A DNA stretch of 64,000 nt from a candidate division FCPU426 bacterium (GCA_963719085.1 CAVRAL010000001.1:192001-256000); one strand, 5' to 3'; positions 21,641 to 63,775 are shown, counted from the stretch's first letter. A program made the numbers and translations. Notes: generated by a model from the letters alone, not told the origin.

Positions 21641-21721
21641 TTTACCGCGAAGCCGCGAAGCCGCAAAGAAAAAATGATTTTATTCTCATTTGTTCTTGGC
21701 GTCTTGGCGTCTTGGCGGTGA
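21641..21721. repeat. Palindromic tandem-unit element, CCAAG/CTTGG family (murE|murF)
   Basis: accgcgaagccgcgaagccgcaaag ... cttggcgtcttggcgtcttggcggtga. Confidence 0.8.
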
Positions 21722-21729
21722 GGGGTTCC

Positions 21730-23073
21730 GTGCTTCCCTGGACTTTGCGGGAGACGGCGGCTTTGGTGAATGGCCGGATCGTGGAAGGGAAAAACGATTT
21801 AGTGGTGACGGGGGTTTGCCACGACACCCGCGCCGTTCAAAAAGGATTCCTGTTCACGGCGATTCGGGGGGCTCGGCTCGATGGGCACCGGTTTTTAGCC
21901 GAGGCGAAACGAAAAGGCGCGGTGGCGGCGCTGGTCTCGCGCTTTGTCGCGGGAGTGAAACTGCCCCAAATTTTGGCGCCGGAGACCACGGCGGCCTTGG
22001 GCGAATTAGGCCGGACCCAGCGCCTGCAATGGGGGGGGCCGGTGGTGGCGGTGACGGGCAGCGTGGGGAAAACCACGGTGAAAGATTTGACGGCCCACTT
22101 GTTGGGCGGAAAGTTTAAGACGCTCAAGACCCAGGGCAACCTGAACAATCAGTTCGGCCTGCCCTTGAGTTTGCTGAAGCTGACGGCGGCCCACGAGGCG
22201 GCCGTGGTGGAGTTGGGGATCAACCATCCGGGCGAGATGGAATGGCTGTCGGAGATCGCCCGGCCGGATACGGCGGTGGTGACGGCGATTGGGGAAGCCC
22301 ATCTGGGTTTCTTTAAGGGGAAGAAGCAGCTGGCCGAGGAAAAATTGAAGATCGCCTCGCATTTGAGGCAGGGGGGGAGTGTCGTGCTAAACGCCGAGGA
22401 CGACTACTTGAAAAAGAATTTGGAGAACAAAAAAAGTTTCGGCTTGCGCCAGGGCGATGTCCGGGCCTGGGGCCTCAAACTTTTGGGGCTTAAGACCCAA
22501 TTCACCCTTTGGGCGGAGGGCCGCGCCTTCCGAACCAGCCTGGCCATGCTGGGCGAGCACAATGTTCAAAACGCCTTGGCGGCCACCACGGCGGCCATGA
22601 CCCTGGGGGTTTCGGCCGAGGAATGCGCGAAACGCCTCAGCACGTTTAGGGTAGAGGCCCCCATGCGGATGGAATTGAAAAAGCGCGACGGAATTCTATT
22701 TATTAATGACGCTTATAACGCCTCGCCCACCTCCATGGTGGCGGCTTTGGCGGCCTTTGAGCGGGTTCCGGCCAAGGGGTATAAGTACGCGGTTTTAGGG
22801 GACATGTTGGAATTGGGCGATTATTCCCTCGGCGCCCACGCGCAGATTTTGCGCTTGGCCCTGATGGAGCCTTTGGATGGACTCATTTTGGTCGGCGACG
22901 GGATGGGCGAAGCCTTGGATCACACGGCGATCCGGAAAAATTTCAGGATCTGGCATTTTCCCTCGGCGGGCCTGACCGGTAAATTTTTGAGGCGCAAATT
23001 GGTGAAGGGTGACGCGGTGTTGCTCAAGGGTTCCCGGGGCATGGCCCTGGAAAAGGTGTTGGACGCGTTTTAA
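21730..23073 (+). CDS. murF: UDP-MurNAc-pentapeptide synthetase MurF
   Basis: DTR, DGH, VTGSVGKTT, NLNNQFGLP, ELGINHPGE, NDAYNASP, GDMLELG, KGSRGM. Start reassigned to GTG 21730 after SD GAGGGG. Confidence 0.95.
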   Translation: MLPWTLRETAALVNGRIVEGKNDLVVTGVCHDTRAVQKGFLFTAIRGARLDGHRFLAEAKRKGAVAALVSRFVAGVKLPQILAPETTAALGELGRTQRLQWGGPVVAVTGSVGKTTVKDLTAHLLGGKFKTLKTQGNLNNQFGLPLSLLKLTAAHEAAVVELGINHPGEMEWLSEIARPDTAVVTAIGEAHLGFFKGKKQLAEEKLKIASHLRQGGSVVLNAEDDYLKKNLENKKSFGLRQGDVRAWGLKLLGLKTQFTLWAEGRAFRTSLAMLGEHNVQNALAATTAAMTLGVSAEECAKRLSTFRVEAPMRMELKKRDGILFINDAYNASPTSMVAALAAFERVPAKGYKYAVLGDMLELGDYSLGAHAQILRLALMEPLDGLILVGDGMGEALDHTAIRKNFRIWHFPSAGLTGKFLRRKLVKGDAVLLKGSRGMALEKVLDAF

Positions 23074-23088
23074 AAAAAGAGAGGTAAT

Positions 23089-23180
23089 TTTTACCACCAA
23101 GGCACCAAGACGCCAAGGAGGCTTAAGGAAAAAATCCTCAGGTTTTCAAATCTTTGATTTCTTGGTGTCTTGGTGGTGAG
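23089..23180. repeat. CCAAG/CTTGG palindromic element (murF|mraY)
   Basis: ttttaccaccaaggcaccaagacgccaag ... cttggtgtcttggtggtgag. Confidence 0.85.
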
Positions 23181-23222
23181 AGAGATTGAGACTTAGCTTA
23201 AGAAACGATCGGAGATCGAAAA

Positions 23223-24311
23223 GTGCTTTACCACTTGTTATATCCGCTGGCGGATAAATTTATCGGGTTCAACGTTTTTCGCTATGTGACCTTCCGCAGC
23301 GTTTACGCCGCCATCACGGCTTTTGGCTTGTGCCTGCTTTTGGGCGGCGCGGTCATCGCCCGCATGCGGGCCGCCCAGTTGGGCGAAAAGATCCGCCACG
23401 ACGGGCCGGCCAGTCATTCCGCGAAGGCGGGTACGCCCACCATGGGCGGGGTTCTTATTCTTTTGACGCTTCTCATCAGCGCGCTGCTTTGGGTTCGGTG
23501 GGACTCCAAGTTTTTGTGGTTGGGGGTTTTTTCACTGGTTTGGTTCGGCCTGGTCGGGTTCGTCGATGACTACTCAAAACTCGTCGGCAAGGGAAAAAGC
23601 CGGGGAATGTCCAGCGCCACCAAGCTTGTTTTGCAGACCGTGGGCGCCGCCATCGTGGTGGCCCTTTATATGTGGGCCCTGCCCGATGATTTCGCGCTTC
23701 GCACCTCCATCACCCTGCCTTTCATCAAGGTGCCGGTGGACCTGGGGATGTTTTACCCCTTTTTCGCCGTGCTCGTCATCGTGGGCGCTTCCAACTCGGT
23801 CAACCTCACCGACGGGCTCGATGGATTGGCCATCGGCTGTTCCACCTTTACGGCCATGGCTTTTGTGGTCATCACCTACGTGTCGGGCAATATCAAGTTC
23901 AGCGAGTATCTCAAAATCATCAGCGTGCCCGGCACGGGTGAGCTGACGGTCATGTGCGCGGCGCTGGTCGGGGCGGGGCTGGGGTTTCTTTGGTTCAACG
24001 CGCATCCGGCCCAGATCTTCATGGGCGACACGGGTTCGTTGGCCCTGGGCGGTCTTTTGGGCACCATCGCGGTGATGGTCAAGCAGGAGCTTTTGCTGGT
24101 GATCGTGGGCGGCATTTTCGTGGTGGAGGCCCTGTCGGTCATTATCCAGGTCACGTCTTATAAATTCAGCGGCAAGCGCGTCTTCAAGATGGCGCCCCTG
24201 CACCACCATTTTGAGCTGTCGGGCGTCCCGGAATCCAAACTCATCGTCCGATTTTGGATCGTGGCCATTATTTTGACATTGCTGACACTGTCGACGCTGA
24301 AACTGCGTTAA
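23223..24311 (+). CDS. mraY: Phospho-MurNAc-pentapeptide transferase MraY
   Basis: GTPTMGG, DDY, NSVNLTDGLDGLA, FMGDTGS, MAPLHHHFE. Confidence 0.97.
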   Translation: MLYHLLYPLADKFIGFNVFRYVTFRSVYAAITAFGLCLLLGGAVIARMRAAQLGEKIRHDGPASHSAKAGTPTMGGVLILLTLLISALLWVRWDSKFLWLGVFSLVWFGLVGFVDDYSKLVGKGKSRGMSSATKLVLQTVGAAIVVALYMWALPDDFALRTSITLPFIKVPVDLGMFYPFFAVLVIVGASNSVNLTDGLDGLAIGCSTFTAMAFVVITYVSGNIKFSEYLKIISVPGTGELTVMCAALVGAGLGFLWFNAHPAQIFMGDTGSLALGGLLGTIAVMVKQELLLVIVGGIFVVEALSVIIQVTSYKFSGKRVFKMAPLHHHFELSGVPESKLIVRFWIVAIILTLLTLSTLKLR

Positions 24312-24328
24312 GAGGAAAAAATGATGGA

Positions 24329-24447
24329 AACCAACACAAAAAGCCAACGCCAAGACGCAAAGGAAAGCGAAAGATATGTTTGAAAAACATTCTCGTTTTG
24401 CCCTTCTTGGCGTCTTGGCGTCTTGGCGTTGGTCGTTTGTGTTGGTT
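24329..24447. repeat. CCAAG/CTTGG palindromic element with extended outer stem (mraY|murD)
   Basis: aaccaacacaaa..ccaacgccaagacgc ... gcgtcttggcgttgg..tttgtgttggtt. Confidence 0.85.
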
Positions 24448-24470
24448 CTGACTTTGGAAGGGGTCGCGAA

Positions 24471-25847
24471 GTGATCTATGTCCATAACAAACAAGTGGCG
24501 GTGATCGGCTTGGGCCGCTCGGGACTGGCTGCGGCGCGTCTTTTGTCCGTGCGGGGCGCCCAAGTGGTGGTCCTGGACGAGAAGACGCCGGAAAAGCTAG
24601 GTTCCTGGATCGACAAGGCCAAGGACCTGCCGATCCGTTTGTCGTTGGGGAAAATGGACTTGACGCTCCTTTTGTCCTCGGATTTGATCGTCACCTCGCC
24701 CGGGGTGCCTTTTGACCATCCGGCCTTGGAACAGGCCCGGGACAAGGGAATCCGGGTGATCGGGGAGCTGGAATTGGCTTACGGTTATTGCCCGGCGCAA
24801 GTCGCCGCCATCACGGGCACCAACGGCAAAACCACCACCACGGCCCTGACGGCCGCCATGATCGCGGCTTCCGGCAAAAAAGCCATCGCTTGCGGGAATA
24901 TCGGCCGGGCTTTCGCCGAGGCGGTCTTTGAGCTTTCGGCTGAGGATTGGGCGGTCTTGGAAGTTTCCAGTTTTCAATTGGAGACCATTGAGACTTTCAG
25001 GCCCAACTTGGCGGCGATTTTAAACGTCACTCCGGATCATTTGGACCGGCATGGCAGCATGCAGGCTTATGTCGAGATGAAGTCCCGGATTTTCGAGAAC
25101 CAAAAACCCGAGGACGCGGCGGTCTTAAATGTGGGCGACAAATACACCCCCATCTTCGCGGGGCTTTTAAAAAGCCGGCTGCACTTCTTCGGTTTCGCCG
25201 AGAAGGCCAAGGATTTGGGCCGTCCGGGCTGTTACGTGGTGGGAAATCAATTGGAACTTTTAGGGCGTCCCTTGTTGAAGTCCGCCGATTTAAAAATTCC
25301 GGGGCCCCATAATTTAGAAAACGCCTGCGCGGCGGCGATGCTGGCCTCGCTGGCGGGTGTTTCGGATTCGGACATCGCCCGGGCTTTGGCGGAATTTAAC
25401 GGGGTGGAGCACCGGTTGGAAAAGGCCGGCGTGATCGAGGGCGTGAGTTTTATCAACGACTCCAAGGGAACCAACGTGGATTCGGTCTTGAAGGCGCTGG
25501 AAAGTTTCGAGCGCCCGATCGTTCTTATCCTGGGCGGCCGGGACAAGGCCGGGGACTTTAGGACCTTGGCTCCTTTGGTAAAGGAAAAAGTGACCCGGGT
25601 GGTGGCCTTCGGGGAATGCAAAGCCAAGGTGGTTCAACAGCTTTCATCCACGGCCACCGTGGTGGAAGCCGAAACCTTGGAAGAGGTGGTGAATGGGGCT
25701 TTCGCGGCCAGTGAAAAGGGGGGCACGGTGCTTTTTTCCCCGGGCTGCGCCAGCTTTGACATGTTTCAGAATTACGAGGATCGGGGCCGTCAGTTTAAGG
25801 ATTTGGTTTTGAAGTTGGCTTTAGCCAAGTCCACGGCTAAGGCTTAA
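24471..25847 (+). CDS. murD: UDP-MurNAc-L-Ala:D-Glu ligase MurD
   Basis: GLGRSG, SPGV, ITGTNGKTTT, GNIG, EVSSFQL, DHLDRH, NDSKGTN, SPGCASFD. Start reassigned to GTG 24471. Confidence 0.96.
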   Translation: MIYVHNKQVAVIGLGRSGLAAARLLSVRGAQVVVLDEKTPEKLGSWIDKAKDLPIRLSLGKMDLTLLLSSDLIVTSPGVPFDHPALEQARDKGIRVIGELELAYGYCPAQVAAITGTNGKTTTTALTAAMIAASGKKAIACGNIGRAFAEAVFELSAEDWAVLEVSSFQLETIETFRPNLAAILNVTPDHLDRHGSMQAYVEMKSRIFENQKPEDAAVLNVGDKYTPIFAGLLKSRLHFFGFAEKAKDLGRPGCYVVGNQLELLGRPLLKSADLKIPGPHNLENACAAAMLASLAGVSDSDIARALAEFNGVEHRLEKAGVIEGVSFINDSKGTNVDSVLKALESFERPIVLILGGRDKAGDFRTLAPLVKEKVTRVVAFGECKAKVVQQLSSTATVVEAETLEEVVNGAFAASEKGGTVLFSPGCASFDMFQNYEDRGRQFKDLVLKLALAKSTAKA

Positions 25848-25856
25848 GAAAATAAG

Positions 25857-25956
25857 TTTTACCGCCAAGGCGCCAAGGACGCCAAGGACGGAAAAACAAA
25901 AAGATATTTTGAAGGGGTTCGACTTTCTTGGCGAACTTGGCGTCTTGGCGGTGAAA
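25857..25956. repeat. CCAAG/CTTGG palindromic element (murD|ftsW)
   Basis: ttttaccgccaaggcgccaaggacgccaag ... cttggcgaacttggcgtcttggcggtgaaa. Confidence 0.88.
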
Positions 25957-26270
25957 TAGTTTTGGCTGAATTTTAGGTTTTAAAGGGAGTCATTTTTACA
26001 TTCGGATTCTAAGACTACGCCTTCTACGCCACTCAACACCTACTACACCTGGCTTGGAATCCGAATGAAAGAATGACAGCCAAAAAAAGAAGTTAAAAAG
26101 TCATTCTGTAACAACCCCTGAAGCCGGGGGATTCAGGGGTTTATGAAAAGATGAATCCTATTTATTAGGGAATCATCTTTGGGCGCCATTGGAAGCTGTC
26201 CCTTCAAATGGCCATGGGGGACGACCTCCTTGTTATTGGCGGTCCGAAGTCGGTTTTATAGAAGTTATTT

Positions 26271-27431
26271 TTGGAGGCAGTTTTGAATTTTAAGACTCGA
26301 CAATTGGAATCGCCGGATTTTCTGCTTTTCCTGATCACCCTGATTCTCACGACTTCGGGACTGATCATGGTCTATAGCGCGTCGGCCATTTTGGCCCACG
26401 ATGAGTACGGCAATTCTTACTATTTCTTCGGCCGCCAACTCCTTTGGATTTTGGTGGGAAGCGCCGCGGCTTGGGTCGTCAGCCGGGTCGATTTGGAAAC
26501 CTTCCGGAGCCTGGCCATACCGGCCCTTTTGGTTGGGTTTTTCCTCATGGCCCTGGTTTGCGTGCCGGGCATCGGCCGCACCGTGGGCGGAGCCCAGCGC
26601 TGGTTTCGCTTGGGCCCCCTTTCGTTCCAGCCTTCCGAAGTCATGAAAATCATCCTGATCTTTTACCTGGCGGATTCCTTGGACCGGCGCCGGCATCTTT
26701 TGGTCAACTTTTCCGGGCTCATGCCCTACCTGGTTATTTTGGGGATCACCATGGTCTTTTTGGAAAAACAACATGACTTCGGGACGGCCGTACTCCTGGC
26801 TTTGGTCACCATCCTGATGCTCTTTTTGGCCGGCATGCCCTGGGGTTATTTCGTGATCCCGGTTTCCATCCTGATCCCGGTTTTTATCTTCCTGGTGGAA
26901 TCGGCCAGCTACCGCATGCGCCGCATCACGGCCTTTTTGAATCCTTGGGACGACCCGCAAGGCGCCGGATTCCAGCTGATTCAAAGCTTGATCGCGGTGG
27001 GCTCGGGCGGGCCCTTCGGCGTGGGACTTTCCAACAGCTCCCAAAAGCTTTTTTACCTGCCGGCTCCGCACACGGATTTTATCTTCGCCATCATCTGCGA
27101 AGAGCTGGGATTGGTGGGGGCGGGGGCTTTGGTGGCCTTCTTCGCTTTTTTCATCCTGCGGGGATTCAAGGTGGCCGAAACCGTAGGGGCCCGCCAGGGC
27201 GGTTTTTTCGCGTTCCTTTTGGCTTCGGGCATTACGGCTTTGATCGGCTTCCAGGCCATCGTGAACTTGGGCGTGGTGACCGGGCTTTTGCCCACCAAGG
27301 GAATTCCCTTGCCGCTGATTTCGTACGGCGGATCGTCCATGGTCTTCACCCTGGTCTCCATCGGCATTCTTTTCAACATTTCCCGGGGGGTGAAGCTGCA
27401 TTTCCCCTTCAGCGGAAAAAGGACGGTTTGA
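26271..27431 (+). CDS. ftsW: SEDS peptidoglycan polymerase FtsW
   Basis: MVYSAS, GAQRW, FQPSE, DFG, LPAPHTDFIF, PTKGIPLPLISYGGSS. Confidence 0.96.
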   Translation: MEAVLNFKTRQLESPDFLLFLITLILTTSGLIMVYSASAILAHDEYGNSYYFFGRQLLWILVGSAAAWVVSRVDLETFRSLAIPALLVGFFLMALVCVPGIGRTVGGAQRWFRLGPLSFQPSEVMKIILIFYLADSLDRRRHLLVNFSGLMPYLVILGITMVFLEKQHDFGTAVLLALVTILMLFLAGMPWGYFVIPVSILIPVFIFLVESASYRMRRITAFLNPWDDPQGAGFQLIQSLIAVGSGGPFGVGLSNSSQKLFYLPAPHTDFIFAIICEELGLVGAGALVAFFAFFILRGFKVAETVGARQGGFFAFLLASGITALIGFQAIVNLGVVTGLLPTKGIPLPLISYGGSSMVFTLVSIGILFNISRGVKLHFPFSGKRTV

Positions 27432-27435
27432 GGAT

Positions 27436-28563
27436 ATGACGGATATGGACCGCGGCGAAAAAGTGAAGGTCATCATCACCGGCGGCGGCACGGGCGGCCA
27501 CGTGTTTCCGGGCATCGCTTTGGCGCAAGAATTGGGACGCCGTTCCTCGGTGAAAGTTCTTTATGTGGGCAAGGTGACCGGGCCTGAAAGCAAATGGGTC
27601 ACGGACCGGGGATTGCCCTTTGAGGGGATCAACGCCAGCGGTTTTCCGCGGGGCTTCAGTTTAAAACTTTTCACCTTTTGGATCGACCTATTGAGGGGAT
27701 TTTCCCAGGCCTCTGGAATTTTGAAAAAATTCCGGCCCCAAGTGGTTTTTTCAACCGGCGGCTACGTGTCGGTGCCGGTGTCGGTGGCGGCGGCGTTGAA
27801 GGGGATTCCGGTGTTGTTGTTCGAGCCCAACGTGACACCGGGCTTGGCGGCCCGGGTTTTGTCCTTTTTCTCAAGCCGGGTTTTCACGGGATTTAAAAAA
27901 ACCTCGGAAACTTTCGCCAGGTCCAAATCAGTTTGGAGCGGGATCCCGGTGCGCCGGGAGATTTTAGAGGCCCGAAAAGAGGAAGCCCTGAAAAGTTTCG
28001 GTCTGGACGGCGAAAAGATCACCCTGCTTCTTTTGGGGGGGAGCCAGGGGGCCCATGCCTTGAACCAAATGATGAGCGGCGCGATCCAGGTATTGAACGA
28101 CGGCGCCGATCCCTTGCAGGTTTTGATGATGACGGGATTTTCCGATTATCAATGGGTGCTCGATGAGACGGGCAAATGCGCTTTGAAGGTGGTCTTGCGG
28201 CCCTTTTTCAGCGACATCCAACAGGCTTACGCGGCCGCGGATTTGGTCGTGGCCCGCTCCGGCGCCATTACTTGCGCGGAGCTTTTATCCCGGGGCCTGC
28301 CGTCCCTGTTGATCCCTTATCCCCACGCCTCGGGCCACCAGGAAGCCAACGCGCGGGCGCTGGAAGAAGCCGGCGCGGCGGAAGTGTTGCTCGAAAAAGA
28401 TTTGCAAAAGGGTTTTTTGGCCGACCGGATCCACGATTTGGTCGCTCATCCGGAACGTTTAAAGCGCATGGGCCTCAAGGCCCGTGAAATTTACAAAGAG
28501 GACGCCTCGGCCTTGATCGCCGAGAACCTGTTGGAATTCGCGTCGCAAAGGAAAAGCGCATGA
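27436..28563 (+). CDS. murG: Lipid II GlcNAc transferase MurG
   Basis: GGGTGGHVFPG, GGYVS, GGSQGA, RSGA, HQEANA. Confidence 0.96.
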   Translation: MTDMDRGEKVKVIITGGGTGGHVFPGIALAQELGRRSSVKVLYVGKVTGPESKWVTDRGLPFEGINASGFPRGFSLKLFTFWIDLLRGFSQASGILKKFRPQVVFSTGGYVSVPVSVAAALKGIPVLLFEPNVTPGLAARVLSFFSSRVFTGFKKTSETFARSKSVWSGIPVRREILEARKEEALKSFGLDGEKITLLLLGGSQGAHALNQMMSGAIQVLNDGADPLQVLMMTGFSDYQWVLDETGKCALKVVLRPFFSDIQQAYAAADLVVARSGAITCAELLSRGLPSLLIPYPHASGHQEANARALEEAGAAEVLLEKDLQKGFLADRIHDLVAHPERLKRMGLKAREIYKEDASALIAENLLEFASQRKSA

Positions 28564-29960
28564 GCCTGTCCCAGTTTTTAACCCAGCCCCTGGGGTCCGT
28601 GAAAAGGGTCCATTTTATCGGCATCGGCGGCGCCGGCATGAGCGGCATCGCGGCGGTGCTCTTGAGCCTGAAATACCAAGTAACGGGATCGGACTTGAAA
28701 CCCAGTGAAGTGACGGACCGCTTGATCGCCATGGGCGCCAAGATCGCCTTTGGCCACAAGGCCGCCAACGCGGTGGGTTCGGACGTGGTGGTTTATTCGG
28801 CGGCGGTTCCCTTGGACAATCCGGAGATCACCGAAGCCCAAAAGCGGCAAATCCCGGTGATCCAACGCACCGAAATGCTGGCCGAACTGATGCGGCTCAA
28901 ATACGGAATCGCGGTCTCGGGCACCCACGGTAAAACCACGACCACTTCCATGATCGGGCTGGCTTTGACCGAGGGAAAACTGGACCCGACCTTGGTGATT
29001 GGGGGCCAAGTGGACGCTTTCAAGTCCAACGCCAAACTGGGAAAAAGCGATTATCTGGTGGCCGAGGCCTGCGAGGCTTTCGGCGAGTTTTTCCTGCTCT
29101 CGCCCATGATTTCCATCATCACCAATATCGACGACGATCACTTGGACTATTACGGTTCCATCGAGAAGGTGCGGGATTCTTTCGTGACCTTCGCCAACAA
29201 AGTTCCTTTTTATGGCTGCGTGATTTTGGGGATCGATGACAAGCAGATCCAGTCCATGGTCGGGCAAATTAAGCGCCGGGTAGTGACCTATGGGCTTCAA
29301 AAACCGGCCCAGGTGATGGCCCGCAAGATCAAATACGAAAAAGCCGGGTCGATCTTTGAGGTGGCCCGGGACGGAAAAAAGCTCGGCGTGGTCCACTTGG
29401 GCGTGCCGGGCCGGTTCAACATTCAAAACGCTTTGGCCGCCATTTCGGTGGCGCTGGAACTCAAAGTTCCCTTCAAGGCGATCGCGGCGGGGTTGGCCCG
29501 CTTCCATGGGGCCCAGCGCCGCTTTGAGATCAAGGGAACCTTCAAGGGCGCCACGGTGGTCGATGATTACGCCCACCATCCCACAGCGGTCTTGGAAACC
29601 TTGAAAGCGGCCAAGCATTTCGCCGGAAGCAAAAAGTTGGTGGTGGTGTTTCAACCCCATCTTTTTTCCCGGACCCAATTGCTCCGGGACAAATTCGGCA
29701 AGGCCTTTGGCGACGCGGATGAGGTGATCATCACCGCCGTTTATCCTTCCCGGGAAAAGCCGATCCCGGGCGTGACGGGCAAAACTTTGGTGGAGGCGAT
29801 CCGGGAAAACGGCCACAAGTCGGTGGCGTCTTTTGAGGATAAGACGGCCCTTTTGGAATATTTAAAAGGCCATCTGACCGGCAAACATGTGCTTTTGACC
29901 ATGGGCGCGGGGGATATCTGGAAACTGGGTTCGGACCTGGTCCAGAAACATAAAGGTTAG
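28560..29960 (+). CDS. murC: UDP-MurNAc:L-Ala ligase MurC
   Basis: HFIGIGGAGMSG, GTHGKTTT, DHLDYY, DDYAHHP, FQPH, MGAGD. Confidence 0.97.
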   Translation: MSLSQFLTQPLGSVKRVHFIGIGGAGMSGIAAVLLSLKYQVTGSDLKPSEVTDRLIAMGAKIAFGHKAANAVGSDVVVYSAAVPLDNPEITEAQKRQIPVIQRTEMLAELMRLKYGIAVSGTHGKTTTTSMIGLALTEGKLDPTLVIGGQVDAFKSNAKLGKSDYLVAEACEAFGEFFLLSPMISIITNIDDDHLDYYGSIEKVRDSFVTFANKVPFYGCVILGIDDKQIQSMVGQIKRRVVTYGLQKPAQVMARKIKYEKAGSIFEVARDGKKLGVVHLGVPGRFNIQNALAAISVALELKVPFKAIAAGLARFHGAQRRFEIKGTFKGATVVDDYAHHPTAVLETLKAAKHFAGSKKLVVVFQPHLFSRTQLLRDKFGKAFGDADEVIITAVYPSREKPIPGVTGKTLVEAIRENGHKSVASFEDKTALLEYLKGHLTGKHVLLTMGAGDIWKLGSDLVQKHKG

Positions 29961-29969
29961 GAAAAAATG

Positions 29970-30051
29970 ACCACCAAGGCACCAAGACACCAAGGAAGGC
30001 GGAAAGAAAATTCGATTTGTTTTTTTCTTGGTGTCTTGGCGTCTTGGTGGT
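29970..30051. repeat. CCAAG/CTTGG palindromic element (murC|murB)
   Basis: accaccaaggcaccaagacaccaag ... cttggtgtcttggcgtcttggtggt. Confidence 0.88.
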
Positions 30052-30067
30052 GAGGAACTTTTTCGTC

Positions 30068-31015: not shown

Positions 31016-31075
31016 ATTTTAAGTTCTAAGTTTTGAGTTCTTAAACTTAAAACTAAAAACTGAGAACTCAAAACT
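31008..31075. repeat. Inverted heptamer tandem repeat (AGTTTTG-like x5, then AAACTNA-like x5) at murB|ddl
   Basis: agttttg aatttta agttcta agttttg agttctt | aaactta aaactaa aaactga gaactca aaact. Confidence 0.8.
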
Positions 31076-31089
31076 AGGGCAGGAAACGA

Positions 31090-33134: not shown

Positions 33135-33170
33135 ACATGAAAAGAGGAACCATGGATAAAAACAATATTA

Positions 33171-33265
33171 ACCACCAAGACACCAAGACACCAAGTTTAA
33201 AAGGTAACGATGGAACTCAAAAGCAAAAGTTTTTGACTTCCTTGGCGCCTTGGCGTCTTGGTGGT
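33171..33265. repeat. CCAAG/CTTGG palindromic element (ftsQ|ftsA)
   Basis: accaccaagacaccaagacaccaag ... cttggcgccttggcgtcttggtggt. Confidence 0.88.
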
Positions 33266-33299
33266 GAAAAACATGTTTTAAAACAAGGGGGTGAATGAA

Positions 33300-34565: not shown

Positions 34566-34572
34566 CGGCGGA

Positions 34573-34659
34573 TTTACCGCCAAGACGCCAAGTGCGCCAA
34601 GAAAGGCAAAGATTAAGAGATTTTGAAGTCCTTGGCGAACTTGGCGTCTTGGCGGTGAA
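34573..34659. repeat. CCAAG/CTTGG palindromic element (ftsA|ftsZ)
   Basis: tttaccgccaagacgccaagtgcgccaag ... cttggcgaacttggcgtcttggcggtgaa. Confidence 0.88.
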
Positions 34660-34734
34660 AAGGTTTTGAATTTGTAGTGGGTTGGACTTTGGAAAGGTGG
34701 TGATTGTTTGGCACTGGAACTAAAGGGTTGAGGG

Positions 34735-34790
34735 GCGCGGGGGCGCGAGTCTTCGCCGCCCAAAGGGCGTGAGGCTTCACGTCCCTGCGC
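34735..34790. repeat. REP-like inverted doublet of GC-rich hairpins
   Basis: gggcgcgagtcttcgccgccc and agggcgtgaggcttcacgtccct, flanked by gcgcgggg/ccctgcgc. Confidence 0.5.
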
Positions 34791-34842
34791 TTAAAAAATG
34801 GGGTTTAAAGTTTCACCAAAAAAATCAAGATGAGGGGGATTT

Positions 34843-36003: not shown

Positions 36004-36023
36004 GGCGGTAAACAGCGGCATTC

Positions 36024-36113
36024 ACCACAGAGTTACACAGAGTGAACAGAGTAAGGATCAAACCCTATTTGGGATTTGGTTTTACTCCGAGTAACTCGGT
36101 GTAACTCCGTGTT
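36024..36113. repeat. Palindromic tandem-unit element, ACAGAG type (after ftsZ)
   Basis: accacagagttacacagagtgaacagagtaa ... ttactccgagtaactcggtgtaactccgtg. Confidence 0.75.
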
Positions 36114-36280
36114 TCAAAGATTTTGACTGTCTTTTTGGCCCGGCGCTCGTCGGGCCGATGAGACGGAAGCACGGCGCCCGGACCCTTTGGTGCTCCGGGA
36201 ACACCCCCTACGCTTTTCGACACCTGGGGTGCCTCCCCGTGCTTCCGTCCCATCGCTGGGGATTTTTTTAGAGGATCCCC

Positions 36281-47661: not shown

Positions 47662-47725
47662 ATCAAAGCACAATTCCCCATGCAATTTATCCCGATTTCT
47701 GATAATTTATTGGTCAGATTGTGGG

Positions 47726-48438: not shown

Positions 48439-48714
48439 TTGACTAAGAGCGAATTGCTGGGAAGTTTAGCCAATGACACGGGTTTGAAGAAAAAAGACGT
48501 GGATAACGTTTTGCAGGCTTTGCGTAACACGATTTACAAAACCTTAAAGACCGAACACAAGATCAAGCTCGACGGTTTGGGCGTGTTTCAATTGAAAGAC
48601 CGTAAAGCCCGCCAAGCGCGGAATCCTCGCACGGGCGAGATGGTCAATGTGCCGGCTAAGAAAGTCGTTAAATTCCGTGTTTTGAAAGATTTGAAAGAAG
48701 CCGTTTTATCATAA
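48439..48714 (+). CDS. hup: HU family DNA-binding protein
   Basis: MTKSEL, GLGVF, ARNPRTGE; SD AGGAGG. Confidence 0.95.
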   Translation: MTKSELLGSLANDTGLKKKDVDNVLQALRNTIYKTLKTEHKIKLDGLGVFQLKDRKARQARNPRTGEMVNVPAKKVVKFRVLKDLKEAVLS

Positions 48715-48737
48715 TCCAGGCTTTTTGAAGCTTTTCC

Positions 48738-48774
48738 AAGCATCCTGTCAAATTGGCAGGGTGCTTTTTTATTT
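48738..48774 (+). terminator. Rho-independent terminator after hup
   Basis: aagcatcctgtcaa...ttggcagggtgctt hairpin followed by a T-tract. Confidence 0.8.
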
Positions 48775-48786
48775 CCCGCCCTTCGA

Positions 48787-51084: not shown

Positions 51085-51087
51085 TCA

Positions 51088-53484: not shown

Positions 53485-53507
53485 TCTTAAAGACGGTAAC
53501 AAAACAT

Positions 53508-53632
53508 TTTTTCACCGCCAAGACGCCAAGGACGCCAAAAACAAAGAAAGACTAGAAATCCGGCAAAAGGTTTTAAAATCCCCGCTTTTGTTTTTGTTTT
53601 TCTTGGCGAACTTGGCGTCTTGGCGGTAAAAA
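53508..53632. repeat. CCAAG/CTTGG palindromic element
   Basis: ttcaccgccaagacgccaaggacgccaa ... cttggcgaacttggcgtcttggcggtaaaa. Confidence 0.88.
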
Positions 53633-53697
53633 TTGACGTTAATTTTATTTCTGTTGTCGGTTCTTAATATTTCCAAAAAAGATTCAGAGAGGCTTTC

Positions 53698-55608: not shown

Positions 55609-55761
55609 AATAAGCTTATTTTCTCCCCAATTTAAAGCCAGGAGCCGGGCACCCCCTAAGCGCCTGGAATCTCTGTATTTCCCGTTAAAGCGGTGCTAAA
55701 TTGTTTTGTAGGAAAGGGTGTTTTTCGGCTTTGGCCGGGGAACACTAGTAAAGGGTGCGCC

Positions 55762-57975
55762 ATGGGTATTCAAGCCTTACTTGATCCGTCCAATATTTCC
55801 GCGACCGGGTTGACCCCCGCGGAGAGCCATCTCAATCGTCCCCTCATTCAAAAGGCCTATGAGTTCGCGAAAAAGGCCCATGAAGGCCAACAGCGGCTTT
55901 CGGGCGACGCTTATTTAACCCACCTGGTCGGCGTGGCGGAAATCCTCGAAGAGCTCCATATGGACTCCATCACCATCGCGGCCGCGCTTTTGCACGACAT
56001 CCTGGAAGACACCACAGTCACTTATGATCAATTGAAACAGGAATTCGGCGAGGAGATCGCCAACCTGGTCGAGGGCGTGACCAAACTTTCCACCCGCAAA
56101 TTCCAGGACGCTACCGTGCGCCAAGCCGAAAGCACCCGCAAGATGCTGGTGGCCATGGCCAAAGACGTGCGCGTCATCCTCATCAAATTGGCCGACCGAA
56201 CCCACAATATGCGCACCCTGGAATTTTTACCCCAGGACCGGCAGGAAAAAATGGCCCGGGAGACGCTGGATATTTACGCGCCCCTGGCCCATCGGCTGGG
56301 AATGGCCAAGATCAAGAGCGAGTTGGAAGACCTGTGCCTGCGCTACCTGCGGCCCGAGGTTTACCGCGACCTGGTGAAAAAAGTGGCCATGAAAAAGGCC
56401 GAGCGCGAAAAGATGGTGGAAACGGTTAAGGCCCTGATTGAGAAGGGTTTGAAAGAGGCGGGCATCACCGCCCAGGTCCAAGGCCGCTCGAAACATTTCA
56501 CCAGCATTTACCAAAAGATGACCGAGCAGGGAAAAGATTTTGATGAGATTTACGACCTGATCGCGATCCGGGTTTTGACCAACACGCTGAAGGAATGCTA
56601 TGAGGTTTTGGGGATGGTGCACACCCTTTGGAAGCCCCTGCCGGGGCGTTTCAAGGACTATGTGGCCATGCCCAAGAACAACCTGTACCAGAGCCTGCAC
56701 ACCACCGTGATGGGGCCCTCGAACCAGCCTTTGGAAATTCAGATCCGTACCTACGAAATGCACCGCACCGCCGAGGAAGGCATCGCGGCCCACTGGATTT
56801 ATAAAGAGGGCCGTGGGTTTGAGAAAGAGGACCAGAAATTCGCCTGGATGCGGCAACTCCTCGACCTGCAGCAGGACATCAAGGACACCACGGAATTTTC
56901 CGAGGCCATGAAGGTGGATTTGTTCGAGGACGAGGTCTTTGTTTTTACCCCTAAGGGCGATGTGAAGGAGATGCCCCGGGGAGCGACGGGCCTGGATTTC
57001 GCCTATACGGTCCATACAGATGTGGGCACCCATTGCATGGGCGTCAAGGTGAACGGTCAAATGGTACCGCTGAAATACATCCTTAAAAACGGCGACATTG
57101 TGGAAGTCTTGACCCAGACCTCCCGCACGCCCAGCCGCGATTGGCTCAAGATTGTCACCACGAGCCGGGCGAAGAACAAAATCCGCCACTGGTTCCGAAC
57201 CCACTTGTCGGCCGATGAAATTGATAAGGGACGGCACTTGTTGGAAAGGGAAGCGGTCCGCTTGGGAGTGGACTTCAACGAGGCGCTTAAGTCGGGCTTG
57301 CTTGAGAGCCTGGTTTCCGATTTCGGGTGCCATAACGTGAACGAACTTTTGGCCAATACGGGCCACGGGGAAATCTCGGCCAAGACCCTGCTCAACCGGA
57401 TTACGGCCAAACTCGAGGAGTCCCAGCCGGAAAAGGCCGAGAAGGCCCCCAAATTGGATGAAAAGAAACCCGAGCCCCACACCTATCGGAGCCTGACCCA
57501 GGAGCCCGTGCGCAATATCCCGATGGAAAAGGGAATCTCCATTTCGGGCAAGACCGACTGGCTCATTCGTTTCGCCCGCTGCTGCACGCCGGTGCCCGGC
57601 GACCCCATCGTGGGTTATATTACCCGTGGACGGGGCGTCTCCGTGCACCGCACCGATTGCCCCAACACCCTGCTTTTGCCCGACGGCGAAAACCGGATGA
57701 TCAAGGTTTCTTGGGAAGCCAATGAGGGACAGGTTTACGAGGTGGCGGTGGAAGTGAAGGCCCGGGACCGGGACAAGCTGTTATCCGACATGCTTTTGGC
57801 GATCTCGGAAGAAGGCGTCATCATCAACGAGGCCAATGCCAAGACGGTGGAAGGCGGCTGGGCCCAAGGTTATTTCCTTTTAGGGATTTCTTCGGCGGAC
57901 CAACTGCAAAAGGTCCTGAAAAAACTGGAACGGGTGCAGGGCGTGGTGAACGCGCGCCGGATTGAGCCGCGTTAA
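55762..57975 (+). CDS. rel: Bifunctional (p)ppGpp synthetase/hydrolase Rel
   Basis: HD domain (LLHDILED), KLADRTHN, GRSK, YQSLHT, EIQIRT, TGS (FTPKG), ZFD (ARCC, HRTDC), ACT. Confidence 0.97.
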   Translation: MGIQALLDPSNISATGLTPAESHLNRPLIQKAYEFAKKAHEGQQRLSGDAYLTHLVGVAEILEELHMDSITIAAALLHDILEDTTVTYDQLKQEFGEEIANLVEGVTKLSTRKFQDATVRQAESTRKMLVAMAKDVRVILIKLADRTHNMRTLEFLPQDRQEKMARETLDIYAPLAHRLGMAKIKSELEDLCLRYLRPEVYRDLVKKVAMKKAEREKMVETVKALIEKGLKEAGITAQVQGRSKHFTSIYQKMTEQGKDFDEIYDLIAIRVLTNTLKECYEVLGMVHTLWKPLPGRFKDYVAMPKNNLYQSLHTTVMGPSNQPLEIQIRTYEMHRTAEEGIAAHWIYKEGRGFEKEDQKFAWMRQLLDLQQDIKDTTEFSEAMKVDLFEDEVFVFTPKGDVKEMPRGATGLDFAYTVHTDVGTHCMGVKVNGQMVPLKYILKNGDIVEVLTQTSRTPSRDWLKIVTTSRAKNKIRHWFRTHLSADEIDKGRHLLEREAVRLGVDFNEALKSGLLESLVSDFGCHNVNELLANTGHGEISAKTLLNRITAKLEESQPEKAEKAPKLDEKKPEPHTYRSLTQEPVRNIPMEKGISISGKTDWLIRFARCCTPVPGDPIVGYITRGRGVSVHRTDCPNTLLLPDGENRMIKVSWEANEGQVYEVAVEVKARDRDKLLSDMLLAISEEGVIINEANAKTVEGGWAQGYFLLGISSADQLQKVLKKLERVQGVVNARRIEPR

Positions 57976-58361
57976 TGGAAAAAGAAATGATCCGGTCCGA
58001 CGGCGCCCCCTCGCCGATTGGGCCCTATTCGCAGGCCGTGGCGGCGGGGGATTTTATTTTTTGCTCGGGCCAAATCCCCCTGGACCCGGCGACCAACACG
58101 TTGGTGAGCGGGGATATCCGGGTCCAAGCCGAGCGGGTTTTGGATAATTTGCAGGCGGTGCTGAAAGCGGCGGGGTCCGATTTGGACCGGGCCGTGAAGA
58201 TCACGGTTTATTTGAAAGACATGAATGACTTCGCCGCCTTGAATCAGGTTTTTGAGGGCCGGTTCAAAACCCATCCCCCTGCCCGGGCGGTGGTCCAGGC
58301 GGCGGCTTTGCCGAAGAACGCCTCCATTGAAGTGGATTTGATCGCGTTGAAGGGGAATTGA
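57975..58361 (+). CDS. ridA: RidA/YjgF family enamine/imine deaminase
   Basis: PIGPYSQA, SGQIP, PARA, LPKNASIE. Confidence 0.93.
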   Translation: MEKEMIRSDGAPSPIGPYSQAVAAGDFIFCSGQIPLDPATNTLVSGDIRVQAERVLDNLQAVLKAAGSDLDRAVKITVYLKDMNDFAALNQVFEGRFKTHPPARAVVQAAALPKNASIEVDLIALKGN

Positions 58362-58497
58362 TCCGGCTTTCAAGGAACTGGTTTGCAATCGTGAAAGACT
58401 GTTTCCGCTGGAGCCGCTTAGCGAAATTAAAAGTGAGGATCGGTCCGCCCCATCGGGGCTAGGACCTTCAGAAATTTCTCAGCGGAAAGGTTGACTG

Positions 58498-60315
58498 ATG
58501 CCGGGAACTCCTTGCGTGAACCATGCCGACCGAGACGCGGTCGGTAACTGTAGCCGTTGCCACCGGTTTTTCTGCGGCGCTTGTTTGGGGCTCGATTCCA
58601 AAATGCAGCCCATCTGCGCCAGCTGTGAGAAAGAGACCGGCGCGGCGTCTTTGGGCGCGCAGCAGCCGGCCCTGTCCCCTTTGGGGGCGCCGGCCGGGGT
58701 CATTCCACCGTCTTCGGTGGGGGGGGCGTCCAAACCTGGATTTGATGTTTTGAAACACAAAATGGAAGAGGATGATCCTCTAGGGCTTTTAAACACGCCG
58801 GCCCCGGCAGCGGCGCCTAAGGCGCCGATTAAAGCCGAAGCCGCGGCTTCCTCGTCGGAAGAAGTTTTGAGTGAAGAAGACGCCATGGAAATCGACGTGG
58901 ATGTGCCCTCCGCGCCTAAGCCCCAGGCGCCCGCGCCTGCCGTCGCGGCGCCAAAGATTTCGTCCGGGTCGCTTTTGGATGATTTACTCACCACGCCCCC
59001 TTCGGCAGTTGTGCCTCCGATCAAAGCGCCGGCCCCCGCGGCGGGACCTGTGATCGCCCCGTCGCCTTCGATCACTGCCCCGGTGATGCCGCAACCGATG
59101 TCCCCTGCGGCATCCTCCTTGGGGACCGTGTCAGCGCCCAAGCCCCAGTCTCCCGTGATCCCGGCTTCTCCCGCGGCATTTGATGCCCCGGCCGGGTCCG
59201 CTCCCGCTTTCCCAAAAGCGTCTCCCTTGGGGACCGCGCCCGTCGCCCCTTCGACATTTGCCCCGACGACGGTTGGGATACCGGCTTCCCCCTCCGCCGG
59301 GTTGGACGATCTTTTGAAGCCCCCGCAGCCGATCGCGCCGGCCGCCGCGCCATCCGCCCCCGCTTCGGGGACTGCGCCGGCCGGCGGGTTGGATGATTTT
59401 CTTTCCGCGCCGATCGCCAAACCCAAGCTTCCGACCGTGACTCCCGTGACTCCGGCCAAATTGAATCTCGACATAAAGCCGGCGGTTCCCATGGCTTCGT
59501 CCGCGCCCCTGCCCGTGTTGGATCCCATCAAGCCATCCATGCCCAAGCTGAACCCTTCGGCGCCCGTTCCCAAGGCGATCGATATTCCGGCCGCGAAGGT
59601 TTCCCTGCCCGATGAGGATTTGAGTCCTAAAGAAAAAGGGACCGGGTTAATGGCCGCGTTGCTTAATTCCAACCTCACGGTCATGAAAATTAAAATTCCT
59701 TATTATGCTTTGGCGGCCGCCTTGGTGGTTTTTTTAGGGCTGGCCGGGTGGGGAATCGCCTCGGCCGGCGGCGGACCCTCGATTAAGATCGTGGACACGA
59801 TCGCCCCGCTCCAAATCGTGCAGGTGGACGCCAGCCAGATCGCCGACATGGACATCACGACCTATTCGGATATCCAGACCAAGCTCCAGGCCATGCAGTT
59901 CACCAACTTTATCCAGATGACGGTGCCCGAGCTTCCCTCGCCCAATTTTTTTAACGTCCAAATGAAACCGGAATCCGGCACCTATGCCGAGGTCATTAAG
60001 ATGCCGGGGCAGTTAAAACCGGTGCTTTCTTACGTGACGGTTTTCACCAACGGCGTTTGGTATTCCACCAATGGCTGGGACGGGAAAAACCAGGAACTGG
60101 AATATTTGGTAAGCGAGTTTGATCCTAATGACGATCCGGACCAGTTATACGTAGCCCATATCCAAGGAGTGGACAAGCTCAAGAGCGATAAGGGCTGGGA
60201 CACGCAAACCATGAGCGAGGACCGCTATCTAGCCGCCTTCAGCGATCATGTGCGCTGGTACCTGGATTACAAGGATATCGCCGGATACCAAGCCGACTTC
60301 GCCGACTGGCATTGA
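58498..60315 (+). CDS. Hypothetical bitopic membrane protein: B-box-like Zn finger, long Pro/Ala linker, TM, C-terminal globular domain
   Basis: CVNH-x7-CSRC-x4-CGAC-x10-CASC; about 340 aa of low complexity; TM YYALAAALVVFLGLAGWGI. Confidence 0.75.
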   Translation: MPGTPCVNHADRDAVGNCSRCHRFFCGACLGLDSKMQPICASCEKETGAASLGAQQPALSPLGAPAGVIPPSSVGGASKPGFDVLKHKMEEDDPLGLLNTPAPAAAPKAPIKAEAAASSSEEVLSEEDAMEIDVDVPSAPKPQAPAPAVAAPKISSGSLLDDLLTTPPSAVVPPIKAPAPAAGPVIAPSPSITAPVMPQPMSPAASSLGTVSAPKPQSPVIPASPAAFDAPAGSAPAFPKASPLGTAPVAPSTFAPTTVGIPASPSAGLDDLLKPPQPIAPAAAPSAPASGTAPAGGLDDFLSAPIAKPKLPTVTPVTPAKLNLDIKPAVPMASSAPLPVLDPIKPSMPKLNPSAPVPKAIDIPAAKVSLPDEDLSPKEKGTGLMAALLNSNLTVMKIKIPYYALAAALVVFLGLAGWGIASAGGGPSIKIVDTIAPLQIVQVDASQIADMDITTYSDIQTKLQAMQFTNFIQMTVPELPSPNFFNVQMKPESGTYAEVIKMPGQLKPVLSYVTVFTNGVWYSTNGWDGKNQELEYLVSEFDPNDDPDQLYVAHIQGVDKLKSDKGWDTQTMSEDRYLAAFSDHVRWYLDYKDIAGYQADFADWH

Positions 60316-60393
60316 GTTTCGGTGATTAGTCCAAAATGGCCTAACGCCCCGCGTTTTTTCAAATCCACTTAAAAACGGTTGCCGGGGCTCGGG

Positions 60394-61925
<1,532 letters not shown>

Positions 61926-61931
61926 AGTCCG

Positions 61932-62049
61932 TTTACATTGATGAACGCAGATGGACGCGGATGAATAAAACCCAACCAGTCGATTTTTTGATTCCGTCTT
62001 TTTAGTGATTTGGTTGATTTAAATCGGAGTTTATCCGCGTTCATCATTG
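61932..62049. repeat. Palindromic tandem-unit element, CGCGGAT type (copy 2; guaB|guaA)
   Basis: tttacattgatgaacgcagatggacgcggat ... atcggagtttatccgcgttcatcattg. Confidence 0.75.
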
Positions 62050-62079
62050 TTTCATTGCCTGAACTTTTAAGGAATCCTT

Positions 62080-63630
62080 GTGAAACACGATCTTGTCATT
62101 GTTTTGGATTTCGGGGCTCAGTACAGCCAGCTCATCGCCCGCCGGGTTCGGGAATCCAAGGTTTACTGCGAAATCCTGCCCTTCAACACGCCGACCGCTA
62201 AAATCCTCGAGAAAAATCCCAAGGGCATCATCCTGTCCGGCGGGCCTTCCAGTGTTTACGCCCCCGGCGCGCCCCATGTGAAGGCGGATCTTTTTGAAAG
62301 CGGCGTGCCGATGCTCGGTATTTGCTACGGCATGCAGCTCATCAGCCAGGCCTTGAAGGGGAATGTCCAAAAAGCCTCCAAGCGGGAATTCGGGCTGGCT
62401 CCGCTTCACATCAAATCCGCGAAGCTTCTTTTCGCCGGGCTTCCGTCCAAACTCAATGTTTGGATGAGCCATGGGGATCAAGTCACCCGCATTCCAAAAG
62501 GATTTAAAAGCCTGGCTTCCACCTCCACTTGCCCCTTCGCGGCGGCCTATGATGAAAAACGGCGGATTTACGGAATCCAGTTCCACCCCGAAGTGGTCCA
62601 TACCCAAAAGGGCAGCCAGATCTTGCGGAATTTCGTCTTGAAGATCGCGAAGGCCAAACCCACTTGGACCATGGATTCTTATGAAAAAATAGCCATCGCC
62701 GAAATCCGGGCCAAGGTCGGGAAGGGCCGGGTGCTTTGCGGCGTTTCGGGCGGCGTGGATTCCACCGTGGCGGCCACTTTGATCCACCGGGCGGTGGGGA
62801 ACCAGTTGGATTGTGTTTTCGTGAACAACGGGGTTTTGCGCCAAGGCGAGGCCGAGCAAGTGGTCAAGATGTTCAAGGAACAACTGCGGATCCCGCTTCA
62901 TTACATCAACGCGGAAAACGAGTTCTTGAAGCTTTTGGAAGGCGTCAGCGAACCGGAGAAAAAACGGAAAATCATCGGGAACACTTTTATCCGGGTCTTC
63001 GAGAAAAAGGCGCGGGAACTGCAAAAGAAAAAGGGCCCCTTTGAGTTCCTGGCCCAGGGAACCCTTTATCCCGACGTGATCGAAAGCGTTTCGGTGAAGG
63101 GCCCCTCGGCGACCATCAAGAGCCATCACAATGTGGGCGGCCTGCCTAAGGATATGAAATTTAAACTGGTCGAGCCCTTGCGGGAACTGTTTAAGGATGA
63201 GGTGCGGGAATTGGGCAAAGAACTCAAGGTGCCCCATGATCTTTTGTGGCGTCAGCCTTTTCCCGGTCCGGGTTTGGCGGTGCGGCATATCGGGCCTTTG
63301 ACGAAAGCGAGGCTTGATGTTTTGCGCAAGGCGGACGCCATTGTGCAGGAAGAAATCGCCAAGGCGGGGCTTTATCACTCCATCTGGCAGTCTTTCGCGG
63401 TCCTCACGCCGGTCAAATCCGTGGGGGTTATGGGCGATGAAAGAACTTACGAGAGCGCCTGTGTCATCCGGGCGGTCCATTCCACCGACGGCATGACGGC
63501 CGATTGGGTGAAGCTTCCCTATGACCTTTTAGGCAAGATGTCCAACCGCATCATCAATGAGGTCCGCGGCATCAACCGGGTGGTTTATGACATCACCAGC
63601 AAGCCCCCCGGCACAATTGAGTGGGAGTAG
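62080..63630 (+). CDS. guaA: GMP synthase (glutamine-hydrolysing)
   Basis: [41 protein letters not shown]. Confidence 0.98.
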
Positions 63631-63645
63631 ATAAGAACCTCAATT

Positions 63646-63775
63646 AAAACCATTTTCACCGCCAAGACGCCAAGTTCGCCAAGAACGGCTAAAAACAAGA
63701 ATTTAACACGAACCATGATCTATTTTGTTTTGCTTTTCTTGGCGTACTTGGTGTTTTGGCGGTAAAACTGGTTTT
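63646..63775. repeat. CCAAG/CTTGG palindromic element (after guaA)
   Basis: aaaaccattttcaccgccaagacgccaagttcgccaag ... cttggcgtacttggtgttttggcggtaaaactggtttt. Confidence 0.88.

Follow-up and report, generated by a model that had tools for sequence, protein, structure and literature searches.

The window analysed here, a stretch of 64,000 nucleotides (nt) from a candidate division FCPU426 bacterium (G000:C1:192001-256000; the host genome, 99% complete, has 3.04 Mb in five contigs), contains a dcw (division and cell wall) gene cluster. NCBIfam names murE, murF, mraY, murD, ftsW, murG, murC, murB, ddl, ftsA and ftsZ in it; the open reading frame (ORF) called ftsQ has no NCBIfam match at 1e-10. 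Our subject is a family of palindromic elements, built of short tandem units in two inverted arms, which fill the junctions of this cluster, and the relation of this family to genes for small proteins of the GxxExxY family. A preliminary description of the window had listed nine such elements, and all nine are present, beginning where it had them begin. Seven of them lie, as it said, in the dcw junctions murE|murF, murF|mraY, mraY|murD, murD|ftsW, murC|murB, ftsQ|ftsA and ftsA|ftsZ, all gene names except ftsQ being those of NCBIfam. Indeed, every open junction from murE to ftsZ is filled: the element-free ones are ftsW|murG (4 nt), murG|murC (-4 nt) and ddl|ftsQ (-1 nt). Seven copies with CCAAG-class units within 13.1 kb compare with 0.32 expected from their density in the whole genome (Poisson 5.5e-8).

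The seven dcw copies are all assigned to the plus strand. The murE|murF element (21641..21721; -46.1 kcal/mol) is a hybrid: its right arm has the common design, with CTTGGCG units, but its left arm, contrary to the preliminary description, consists of CGCGAAG/CGCAAAG units instead of CCAAG ones, and thus there is one mismatch in each unit. Its right end, GGTGAGGGG, lies 9 nt upstream of the likely GTG start of murF. The murF|mraY element (23089..23180; -48.2 kcal/mol) has CACCAAG/CGCCAAG arms. The mraY|murD element (24329..24447), of GCCAAG/GCAAAG units, is present, but the ending GG(C/T)GGT once ascribed to it is not: there is no GGCGGT end, and the element has extra outer ends, AACCAACACAAA...TTTGTGTTGGTT, which resemble the arms of a GxxExxY gene at G000:C4:283823. 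CGCCAAG arms make up the murD|ftsW element (25857..25956; -59.3 kcal/mol), which starts 10 nt past the murD stop, and the ftsA|ftsZ element (34573..34660; -55.9 kcal/mol), which starts 8 nt past the ftsA stop; CACCAAG arms are found in murC|murB (29970..30053; -51.8 kcal/mol) and ftsQ|ftsA (33168..33269). Related palindromes had also been claimed for the murB|ddl gap and the 3' flank of ftsZ, and both do hold tandem-unit palindromes, neither assigned to a strand: an AT-rich one of GTTTTGAGTTCTAA-type units, which forms a separate class (31017..31076; -22.5 kcal/mol, z -4.5), and one of the CACAGAG class (36021..36113). The two copies outside the cluster are of the CGCCAAG class and on the plus strand. 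One lies between an 798-aa ORF and an IctB-like gene (53510..53631), and since its spacer and flanks resemble the copy at G000:C1:690245, the two belong to a paralogous segment; the other (63654..63767) lies 24 nt past the guaA stop. When eight copies were folded as RNA, single long hairpins of -44 to -59 kcal/mol resulted (z -4.3 to -9.6), and none of 200 shuffles was as stable.

The family described for the window is no local oddity but is dispersed over the genome. With a strict pattern there are 149 left and as many right arrays, 56 left-then-right pairs lying within 150 nt against 1 in reversed order, and an arm profile finds 160 arms, forming 63 pairs and leaving 34 arms unpaired. A census of exact-core hairpins of all classes, which degenerate classes escape, returns 67 elements against 6 in the control. 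Each member has two inverted arms, each with at least two tandem units of 7-11 nt; typically an arm combines some three tandem units of 8-9 nt, patterned C(G/A)C-NN-AG, with a AAAACCnTTTTC end. The inverted end drawn in the preliminary description is real, but conservation extends 12 nt farther out than was drawn (AAAACCnTTTTC|ACCGCC ... GGCGGT|GAAAAnGGTTTT), so that the conserved inverted end measures about 42 nt, AAAACCnTTTTC-ACCGCCAAGACGCCAAGTTCGCCAAG. Among 60 paired copies, 44 have CGCCAAG units, 11 have CACCAAG units and 5 are mixed. Covariation of the arms, analysed like the flanks on the 47 of 60 copies whose ends are fixed by pattern, is evident: the subtype agrees between the two arms (49 and 11 against 6 and 5; Fisher 1.3e-5). 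The spacers are unrelated, as had been noticed in the window, and 52 of 60 are singletons genome-wide. Rfam at the gathering score found no family across the window, rRNA included, and around 25840-26290 gave only far sub-threshold matches to long-hairpin miRNA models. A terminator consensus scan limited to loops of 3-8 nt flagged none of the elements (in total 32 hits against 32.7 in shuffles); the outer stem of the elements ends GGTTTT.

Some copies carry additional structure. A two-hairpin element of about 75 nt (C1:467897-467971, C1:348973-349048, C4:1132133-1132208 and C4:148151-148207 of the host genome) sits in 4/4 copies at one position of the right arm, between CTTG and GCGTC of the second unit, and looks like a second small element targeting the arms. 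At G000:C5:121511-121775 the 209-nt spacer of a CACCAAG-armed element holds a further long palindrome, CCCCTCTCCCCTTGAGGGAGAGGG...CCCTCATCC...GGGAGAAGG.

The placement of the family was evaluated for 60 pairs with spacers up to 150 nt, with gene calls based on ORFs. All 60 are intergenic, between protein-coding ORFs, in a genome of which 13.3% is intergenic. The preliminary description had assumed a bias towards operon junctions, and this bias is borne out: neighbouring genes are co-directional at 52 of the 60 pairs (4 are divergent and 4 convergent), against an expectation of 64% by intergenic length or 72% for gaps of at least 60 nt. The element follows the upstream stop codon at a median distance of 20 nt, and within 40 nt in 45 of the 52 cases. 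Copies are also clustered, with 17 neighbour pairs within 5 kb against 5.5 expected, a number which none of 2000 random draws reached.

The preliminary description had mentioned similar palindromes beside GxxExxY nuclease-like genes in other bacteria, and had correctly stated that the window has no such gene; the four copies of this genome are all elsewhere. An arm pair 414 nt apart (G000:C4:972781-973262) encloses a 130-aa ORF which matches TIGR04256, GxxExxY, at 1.7e-43 and PF13366 at 9.1e-43. This gene, at G000:C4:972859, has CACCAAG arms, and the remaining three, one of the four having an internal TGA, are no exception to the rule: 4/4 are bracketed by tandem-unit inverted arms and are co-oriented with both neighbours. 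The arm classes around the four are CACCAAG, GCAAAG/GCTAAG and GATGAACGC. The link so indicated holds in this genome, and it holds in relatives as well. GxxExxY is found in 17 of 20 family genomes, and tandem-unit arms are clear around 45 of the 47 full-length family genes, the others being L016, which is degenerate, and L075, which is atypical. CCAAG-class arms around the gene occur in the relatives at L023, L025, L029, L036, L040, L042, L048, L049, L051 and L070. On a quick-search tree of 43 nuclease proteins (L027 was left out for want of the motif, and seven loci fetched later are outside the tree) the arm class changes 9 times, compared to 23.9 in shuffles, of which 0/200 are as low, and the GATG arm class is a single clade with support 99.

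Beyond the family, a search with the single CACCAAG-armed protein as query returned relatives which are 50-64% identical. A strict arm test was passed by 51 of the 73 loci for which both flanks are available, against 6 in the opposite arrangement, which served as the control, as arms are common to several loci. The armed loci come from records named for 12 phyla, and more loci appear armed when judged by eye. Genomes with a CCAAG-class copy of the gene have higher arm counts (medians 34 vs 11.5, one-sided p 0.011, in a post hoc comparison among kin that are not independent). As a separate observation, at L026 (G017:C60) the CCACCAG arm units around a GxxExxY gene are split by small GC-rich hairpins such as GCCGCCCTTGGCGGC, which is a more elaborate arm design.

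The protein itself has the residues of a PD-(D/E)XK nuclease, E...D...ExK plus QxxxY on an alpha-beta-beta-beta-alpha-beta core. The nuclease is under constraint, with E34, D74, E84, K86, Q98 and Y102 invariant in 34 sequences. A structure model (pLDDT 94.9) has its best Foldseek matches in Cas4 SSO0001 (4ic1, E 3.7e-4) and lambda exonuclease, both at a modest TM score of about 0.5, with Hjc lower; by sequence, no solved structure matches below E 0.09. We assign the protein to a RecB/Cas4/lambda-exonuclease-like branch of the PD-(D/E)XK nucleases.

The short copies preserve a trace of the gene-bearing form. One arm is bordered on its inner side by the motif RAnGGC, and in the gene-bearing form this motif is the Shine-Dalgarno region. 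Read in sense, the G-rich RAnGGC side is 5' in 40 copies and opposite in 9, with 3 ties (p 9e-6). The RNA fold is more stable in sense in 37 of 52 copies (Wilcoxon p 0.008), with 185 against 120 G-U pairs; inside the arms, however, mismatches of the G-U and A-C kinds balance each other (84 vs 76).

The preliminary description had taken copies fixed at the same sites across distant relatives, without presence/absence polymorphism, as an argument against mobility. What relatives have is a mixture of filled, empty and class-swapped junctions, within the genus too, which favours turnover; the target-site duplication that was also to be looked for was not found. Of 18 other family genomes, 15 contain the arm pattern; arm numbers run from 0 to 72, against 109 in the host genome. 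Outside the family the pattern occurs in one genome out of 12, and the reversed control yields 0 or 1. We compared the dcw cluster in 15 relatives, that is, in 16 family genomes with the host. The gaps vary widely: murE|murF has 169 nt in the host and -1 or -4 in five genomes of five genera, and murC|murB has 44-81 nt without a hairpin in 6 genomes. Where junctions of other genera are filled, the design is the same and the units are others (CACGAAG, CACAGAG, ACACGGAT, GAATTAGGAAT).

Ten sites were compared with one congener, whose DNA is 75-84% identical. Two have the same class there, ftsQ|ftsA (with an identical outer flank and an unalignable spacer) and murB|ddl; one, C1:470654, has a related form; and three have another class, namely mraY|murD, murC|murB (GATG class) and the guaA flank (two CGCAGAG-class elements). 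At the remaining four, murD|ftsW (L001, empty), ftsA|ftsZ, C1:463112 and C1:465987, the congener has no such element, and at ftsA|ftsZ it has an unrelated plain hairpin. In the 4 testable pairs, of 5 considered, orthologous spacers of host and congener show no more likeness than spacers paired at random, although saturation could mask it. Two further empty sites come from metagenome contigs of a relative in run X4, which were placed at 85% likeness and which we regard as moderate evidence: at murF|mraY position 23076 is joined to 23224 by 23 other letters, and at murC|murB position 29956 is joined to 30095 by 30 other letters. As an observation apart from this, the congener has the 3'-terminal ~30 nt of guaA in duplicate, the two copies being some 80 nt from each other with an unrelated insert in between (L066, G001:C167, ~820-960), and the two CGCAGAG-class elements follow.

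In our opinion, with a probability of roughly 0.6, the short copies are gene-less members of a family of hairpin cassettes, selfish DNA tolerated at operon junctions, for which the GxxExxY nuclease would be the mobilising enzyme. The complete cassette is a small promoter-less GxxExxY gene between two inverted arms. Arms and gene travel together, with arm classes distributed in agreement with the nuclease tree. What the short copies retain is the arms and, beside the 5' arm, a Shine-Dalgarno-like RAnGGC stub; they sit in sense, about 20 nt behind the stops of co-directional genes. Orthologous junctions have acquired, lost or exchanged elements between genomes that are evolutionarily close, and the copy number differs widely between related genomes. 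It seems reasonable to speculate that such a cassette would survive where it is harmless, i.e. at operon junctions, where host read-through transcription would provide for expression of the nuclease. Arms could spread or be copied by way of breaks made by the nuclease, which may recognise the repeats specific to its arm class, probably when these are extruded as hairpins or cruciforms. The gene-less copies would then be relics, or be served in trans. For the host, the consequence would be a dcw mRNA with hairpins of -45 to -60 kcal/mol between cistrons, which are probably tolerated or processed rather than needed.

Several points weigh against this reading. We know of no biochemical activity for any GxxExxY protein. 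As for movement, no target-site duplication was seen in 47 aligned flanks, filled and empty pairs being too diverged to decide, and apparent direct repeats at the ends are the self-complementary outer part of the inverted end. The lone good match among the mostly singleton spacers is in the paralogous segment, where flanks are shared as well, and a comparison of spacers with 51 gene-bearing loci for remnants of the gene gave only 11-14-nt matches at chance level. Unrelated spacers without a gene remnant mean that the short copies have neither been freshly copied from one another nor arisen by recent deletion. The orientation bias is inseparable from the direction of replication, because host genes are strongly co-oriented with replication and effects of transcription and replication are thus indistinguishable; the discordant short copies number 5, with 3 in accord with transcription and 2 with replication. 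Most genera hold some hairpin in the same dcw junctions, which could mean that a hairpin is wanted there. Further, the CGCCAAG subtype accounts for 44 of 60 short copies, yet the sole CCAAG-class gene of this genome has CACCAAG arms, and none of its GxxExxY genes has the majority CGCCAAG arms. Finally, the congener has 33 arms but no GxxExxY match (it is 82% complete).

The thought that hairpins are wanted leads to a different explanation, according to which the elements serve the host as stem-loops that block 3' exonucleases, give RNase III sites or attenuate read-through for differing dcw levels, with the nuclease gene as a passenger. The sense orientation about 20 nt past stop codons, the more stable sense fold in 37/52 copies and the presence of some tandem-unit hairpin, differing in sequence, in the same dcw junctions of most of the 16 genomes would all be expected of such hairpins. 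We nevertheless consider it unlikely, because the same junctions are tight or overlapping in several genera (murE|murF, -1 to -4, in 5 genomes) or free of hairpins (murC|murB, in 6 genomes), because some copies are absent from the congener and from run X4, and because arm numbers range from 0 to 109 among relatives. The unit sequence, moreover, is kept far beyond the needs of pairing and is common to the nuclease cassettes. In the arms themselves G-U pairs are not in excess on the sense strand (the 84 vs 76 given above), mismatches are tolerated in all units of the murE|murF copy, and the asymmetry of the fold could come from a C-to-T bias of the leading, non-template strand. One may also imagine old resident palindromes that were fixed early in the family and change in place, their units drifting by concerted evolution (slippage within an arm and copying between arms); the various unit classes found at one junction would then form a single lineage, and nothing would move today. 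The classes are indeed one or two bases apart per 7-nt unit (CCAAG, CAAAG, CAGAG, CGAAG), a whole arm differs as a block in the murE|murF hybrid, and unrelated spacers are what one expects of old copies. We find this improbable, given that discrete classes recur across sites, genomes and phyla and track the nuclease tree, and that empty sites exist in the congener and in five genera. The failure of orthologous spacers to exceed random pairs in the 4 tested, with saturation as a possible cover for likeness, the clustering and the widely differing copy numbers argue in the same direction.

Long terminal inverted repeats, many intergenic copies and clustering would equally suit ordinary miniature transposons, either miniature inverted-repeat transposable elements (MITEs) or REPINs, the paired form of repetitive extragenic palindromic (REP) sequences, moved by a transposase other than GxxExxY. 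This was the analogy drawn in the preliminary description, and taken literally it is not supported: there is no Y1 transposase of the REP-associated kind (RAYT), no target-site duplication was found, and the copies have no interior in common. For Y1/RAYT (PF01797) the 99% complete genome has 0 matches, compared to matches in 6 of 14 control genomes; no scan for DDE transposases was made. Between paired arms, at distances of up to 1500 nt, nothing but a GxxExxY gene or small repeats is present, and the element ends, AAAACCnTTTTC-ACCGCCAAG, have no GTAG or CGTC REP head. With no RAYT, no target-site duplication found and unrelated spacers, the elements are neither REPINs nor classical MITEs, and, lacking a common interior, the short copies do not seem to have been copied from each other; a foreign transposase seems to us very improbable. 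Tandem iteron-like units, dense in the dcw cluster, could also remind one of binding-site arrays for a regulator of cell-wall and division genes. This we find scarcely credible: some 60 to 75 copies stand beside unrelated genes, they are behind stop codons and not at promoters, and in 12 named phyla nuclease genes lie within the same arms.

Likeness to known systems is nevertheless instructive. In the REPIN/REP-BIME (bacterial interspersed mosaic element) system, the gene of the RAYT transposase (TnpA-REP, a Y1 HUH enzyme) is flanked by its own palindromic repeats, and gene-less inverted pairs are intergenic. The hairpin cassettes share with it the combination of one or few gene copies flanked by their own palindromic repeats with tens of gene-less inverted intergenic pairs, the association of repeat type with gene lineage, and copy numbers that differ between relatives. 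They differ in the enzyme, a PD-(D/E)XK nuclease instead of an HUH Y1 transposase, which the genome lacks by the search given above, in arms of three tandem 8-9-nt units with an A/T-tract end instead of a REP of 20-40 nt with a GTAG or CGTC tag, and in the unrelated interiors of short copies. Bacterial MITEs, such as Correia/NEMIS, ERIC and RUP, are comparable in their length of about 100 bp, terminal inverted repeats, intergenic position, co-transcription with neighbours and RNA hairpins; here, on the contrary, arms are internally repetitive, and no target-site duplication, common interior or parent DDE insertion sequence was found, though, as said, DDE transposases were not scanned for.

The ORF-bearing intervening sequences (IVS) of rRNA are thought to be selfish, depend on host transcription and are excised by RNase III. 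With the 23S rRNA IVS, our cassette has in common a small promoter-less ORF in a long stem, which is sense in the host transcript and would depend on host transcription. An IVS lies in rRNA helices, however, in 23S rRNA in helix 25 or 45, whereas the 60 copies studied here all lie between protein-coding ORFs. The ORF is GxxExxY here and a four-helix-bundle S23p in the IVS, as exemplified by the Coxiella burnetii IVS with its S23p ORF (PMC4990558); TIGR02436, the model for that bundle, has 0 matches in the host genome. Homing endonuclease genes resemble the cassette in that a small nuclease gene is the sole cargo, in patchy filled and empty sites and in a spread over many phyla. Unlike them, the GxxExxY gene is outside introns and inteins and is of no LAGLIDADG, GIY-YIG or HNH family, and it is accompanied by many gene-less satellites and palindromic tandem-unit ends.

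Class swaps at fixed junctions, the murE|murF hybrid, unrelated spacers, the absence of Y1 and the failure to find target-site duplications are not explained by any of this, and they motivate a bolder variant of the selfish-cassette reading, which we regard as rather unlikely and yet worth stating. GxxExxY nucleases might drive an undescribed kind of selfish element, one that spreads its arms and not a fixed unit. Each nuclease lineage would read the two variable bases of C(G/A)C-NN-AG, given three times per arm, and cut junction hairpins or arms, and repair would write its own arm class into the site. If arms were rewritten in this manner, one junction could have different classes in close relatives, hybrid elements would exist, arms would be alike while spacers are unrelated, and no target-site duplication would be seen.

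GxxExxY proteins form a large family of many phyla. The entry for PF13366 in a superfamily survey lists its function as 'Unknown' (PMC3424549), and a reverse-transcriptase preprint has a passing mention of the family. Among the literature searched, with subscription journals outside the scope, we found no description of the element and no link of PF13366 to repeats. The window ties this family to repeats that fill nearly every open junction of a highly conserved operon, and recognising and cutting its own tandem-unit arms is a job that we propose for the protein. A class of intergenic repeats which genome annotation leaves blank would gain an explanation, and the dcw cluster offers a natural system for studying how essential operons tolerate strong hairpins between cistrons. 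If it is true that the nuclease moves or rewrites arms, this would be a type of mobile element with an enzyme family unlike those of all described miniature elements.

Structures other than the elements are also present in the dcw junctions. The murD|ftsW gap holds at 25990-26076 a conserved hairpin with the stem CATTCGGATTC...GGAATCCGAATG, flanked by TCATTTTT...AATGA, and a loop of about 35 nt with three or four CAACACC/CTACGCC-like repeats. It is found at the same place in 16/16 family genomes compared, has an RNA fold of -35.6 kcal/mol (z -5.6) and no Rfam match, and is possibly a leader of ftsW or a small RNA encoded upstream of it. Beside the elements, murD|ftsW (26080-26270) and ftsA|ftsZ (34660-34840) contain additional conserved or structured stretches, one of which, GGGGCGCGGGGGCGCGAGTCTTCGCCGCCCAAAGGGCGTGAGGC, ahead of ftsZ, is nearly identical in the congener.

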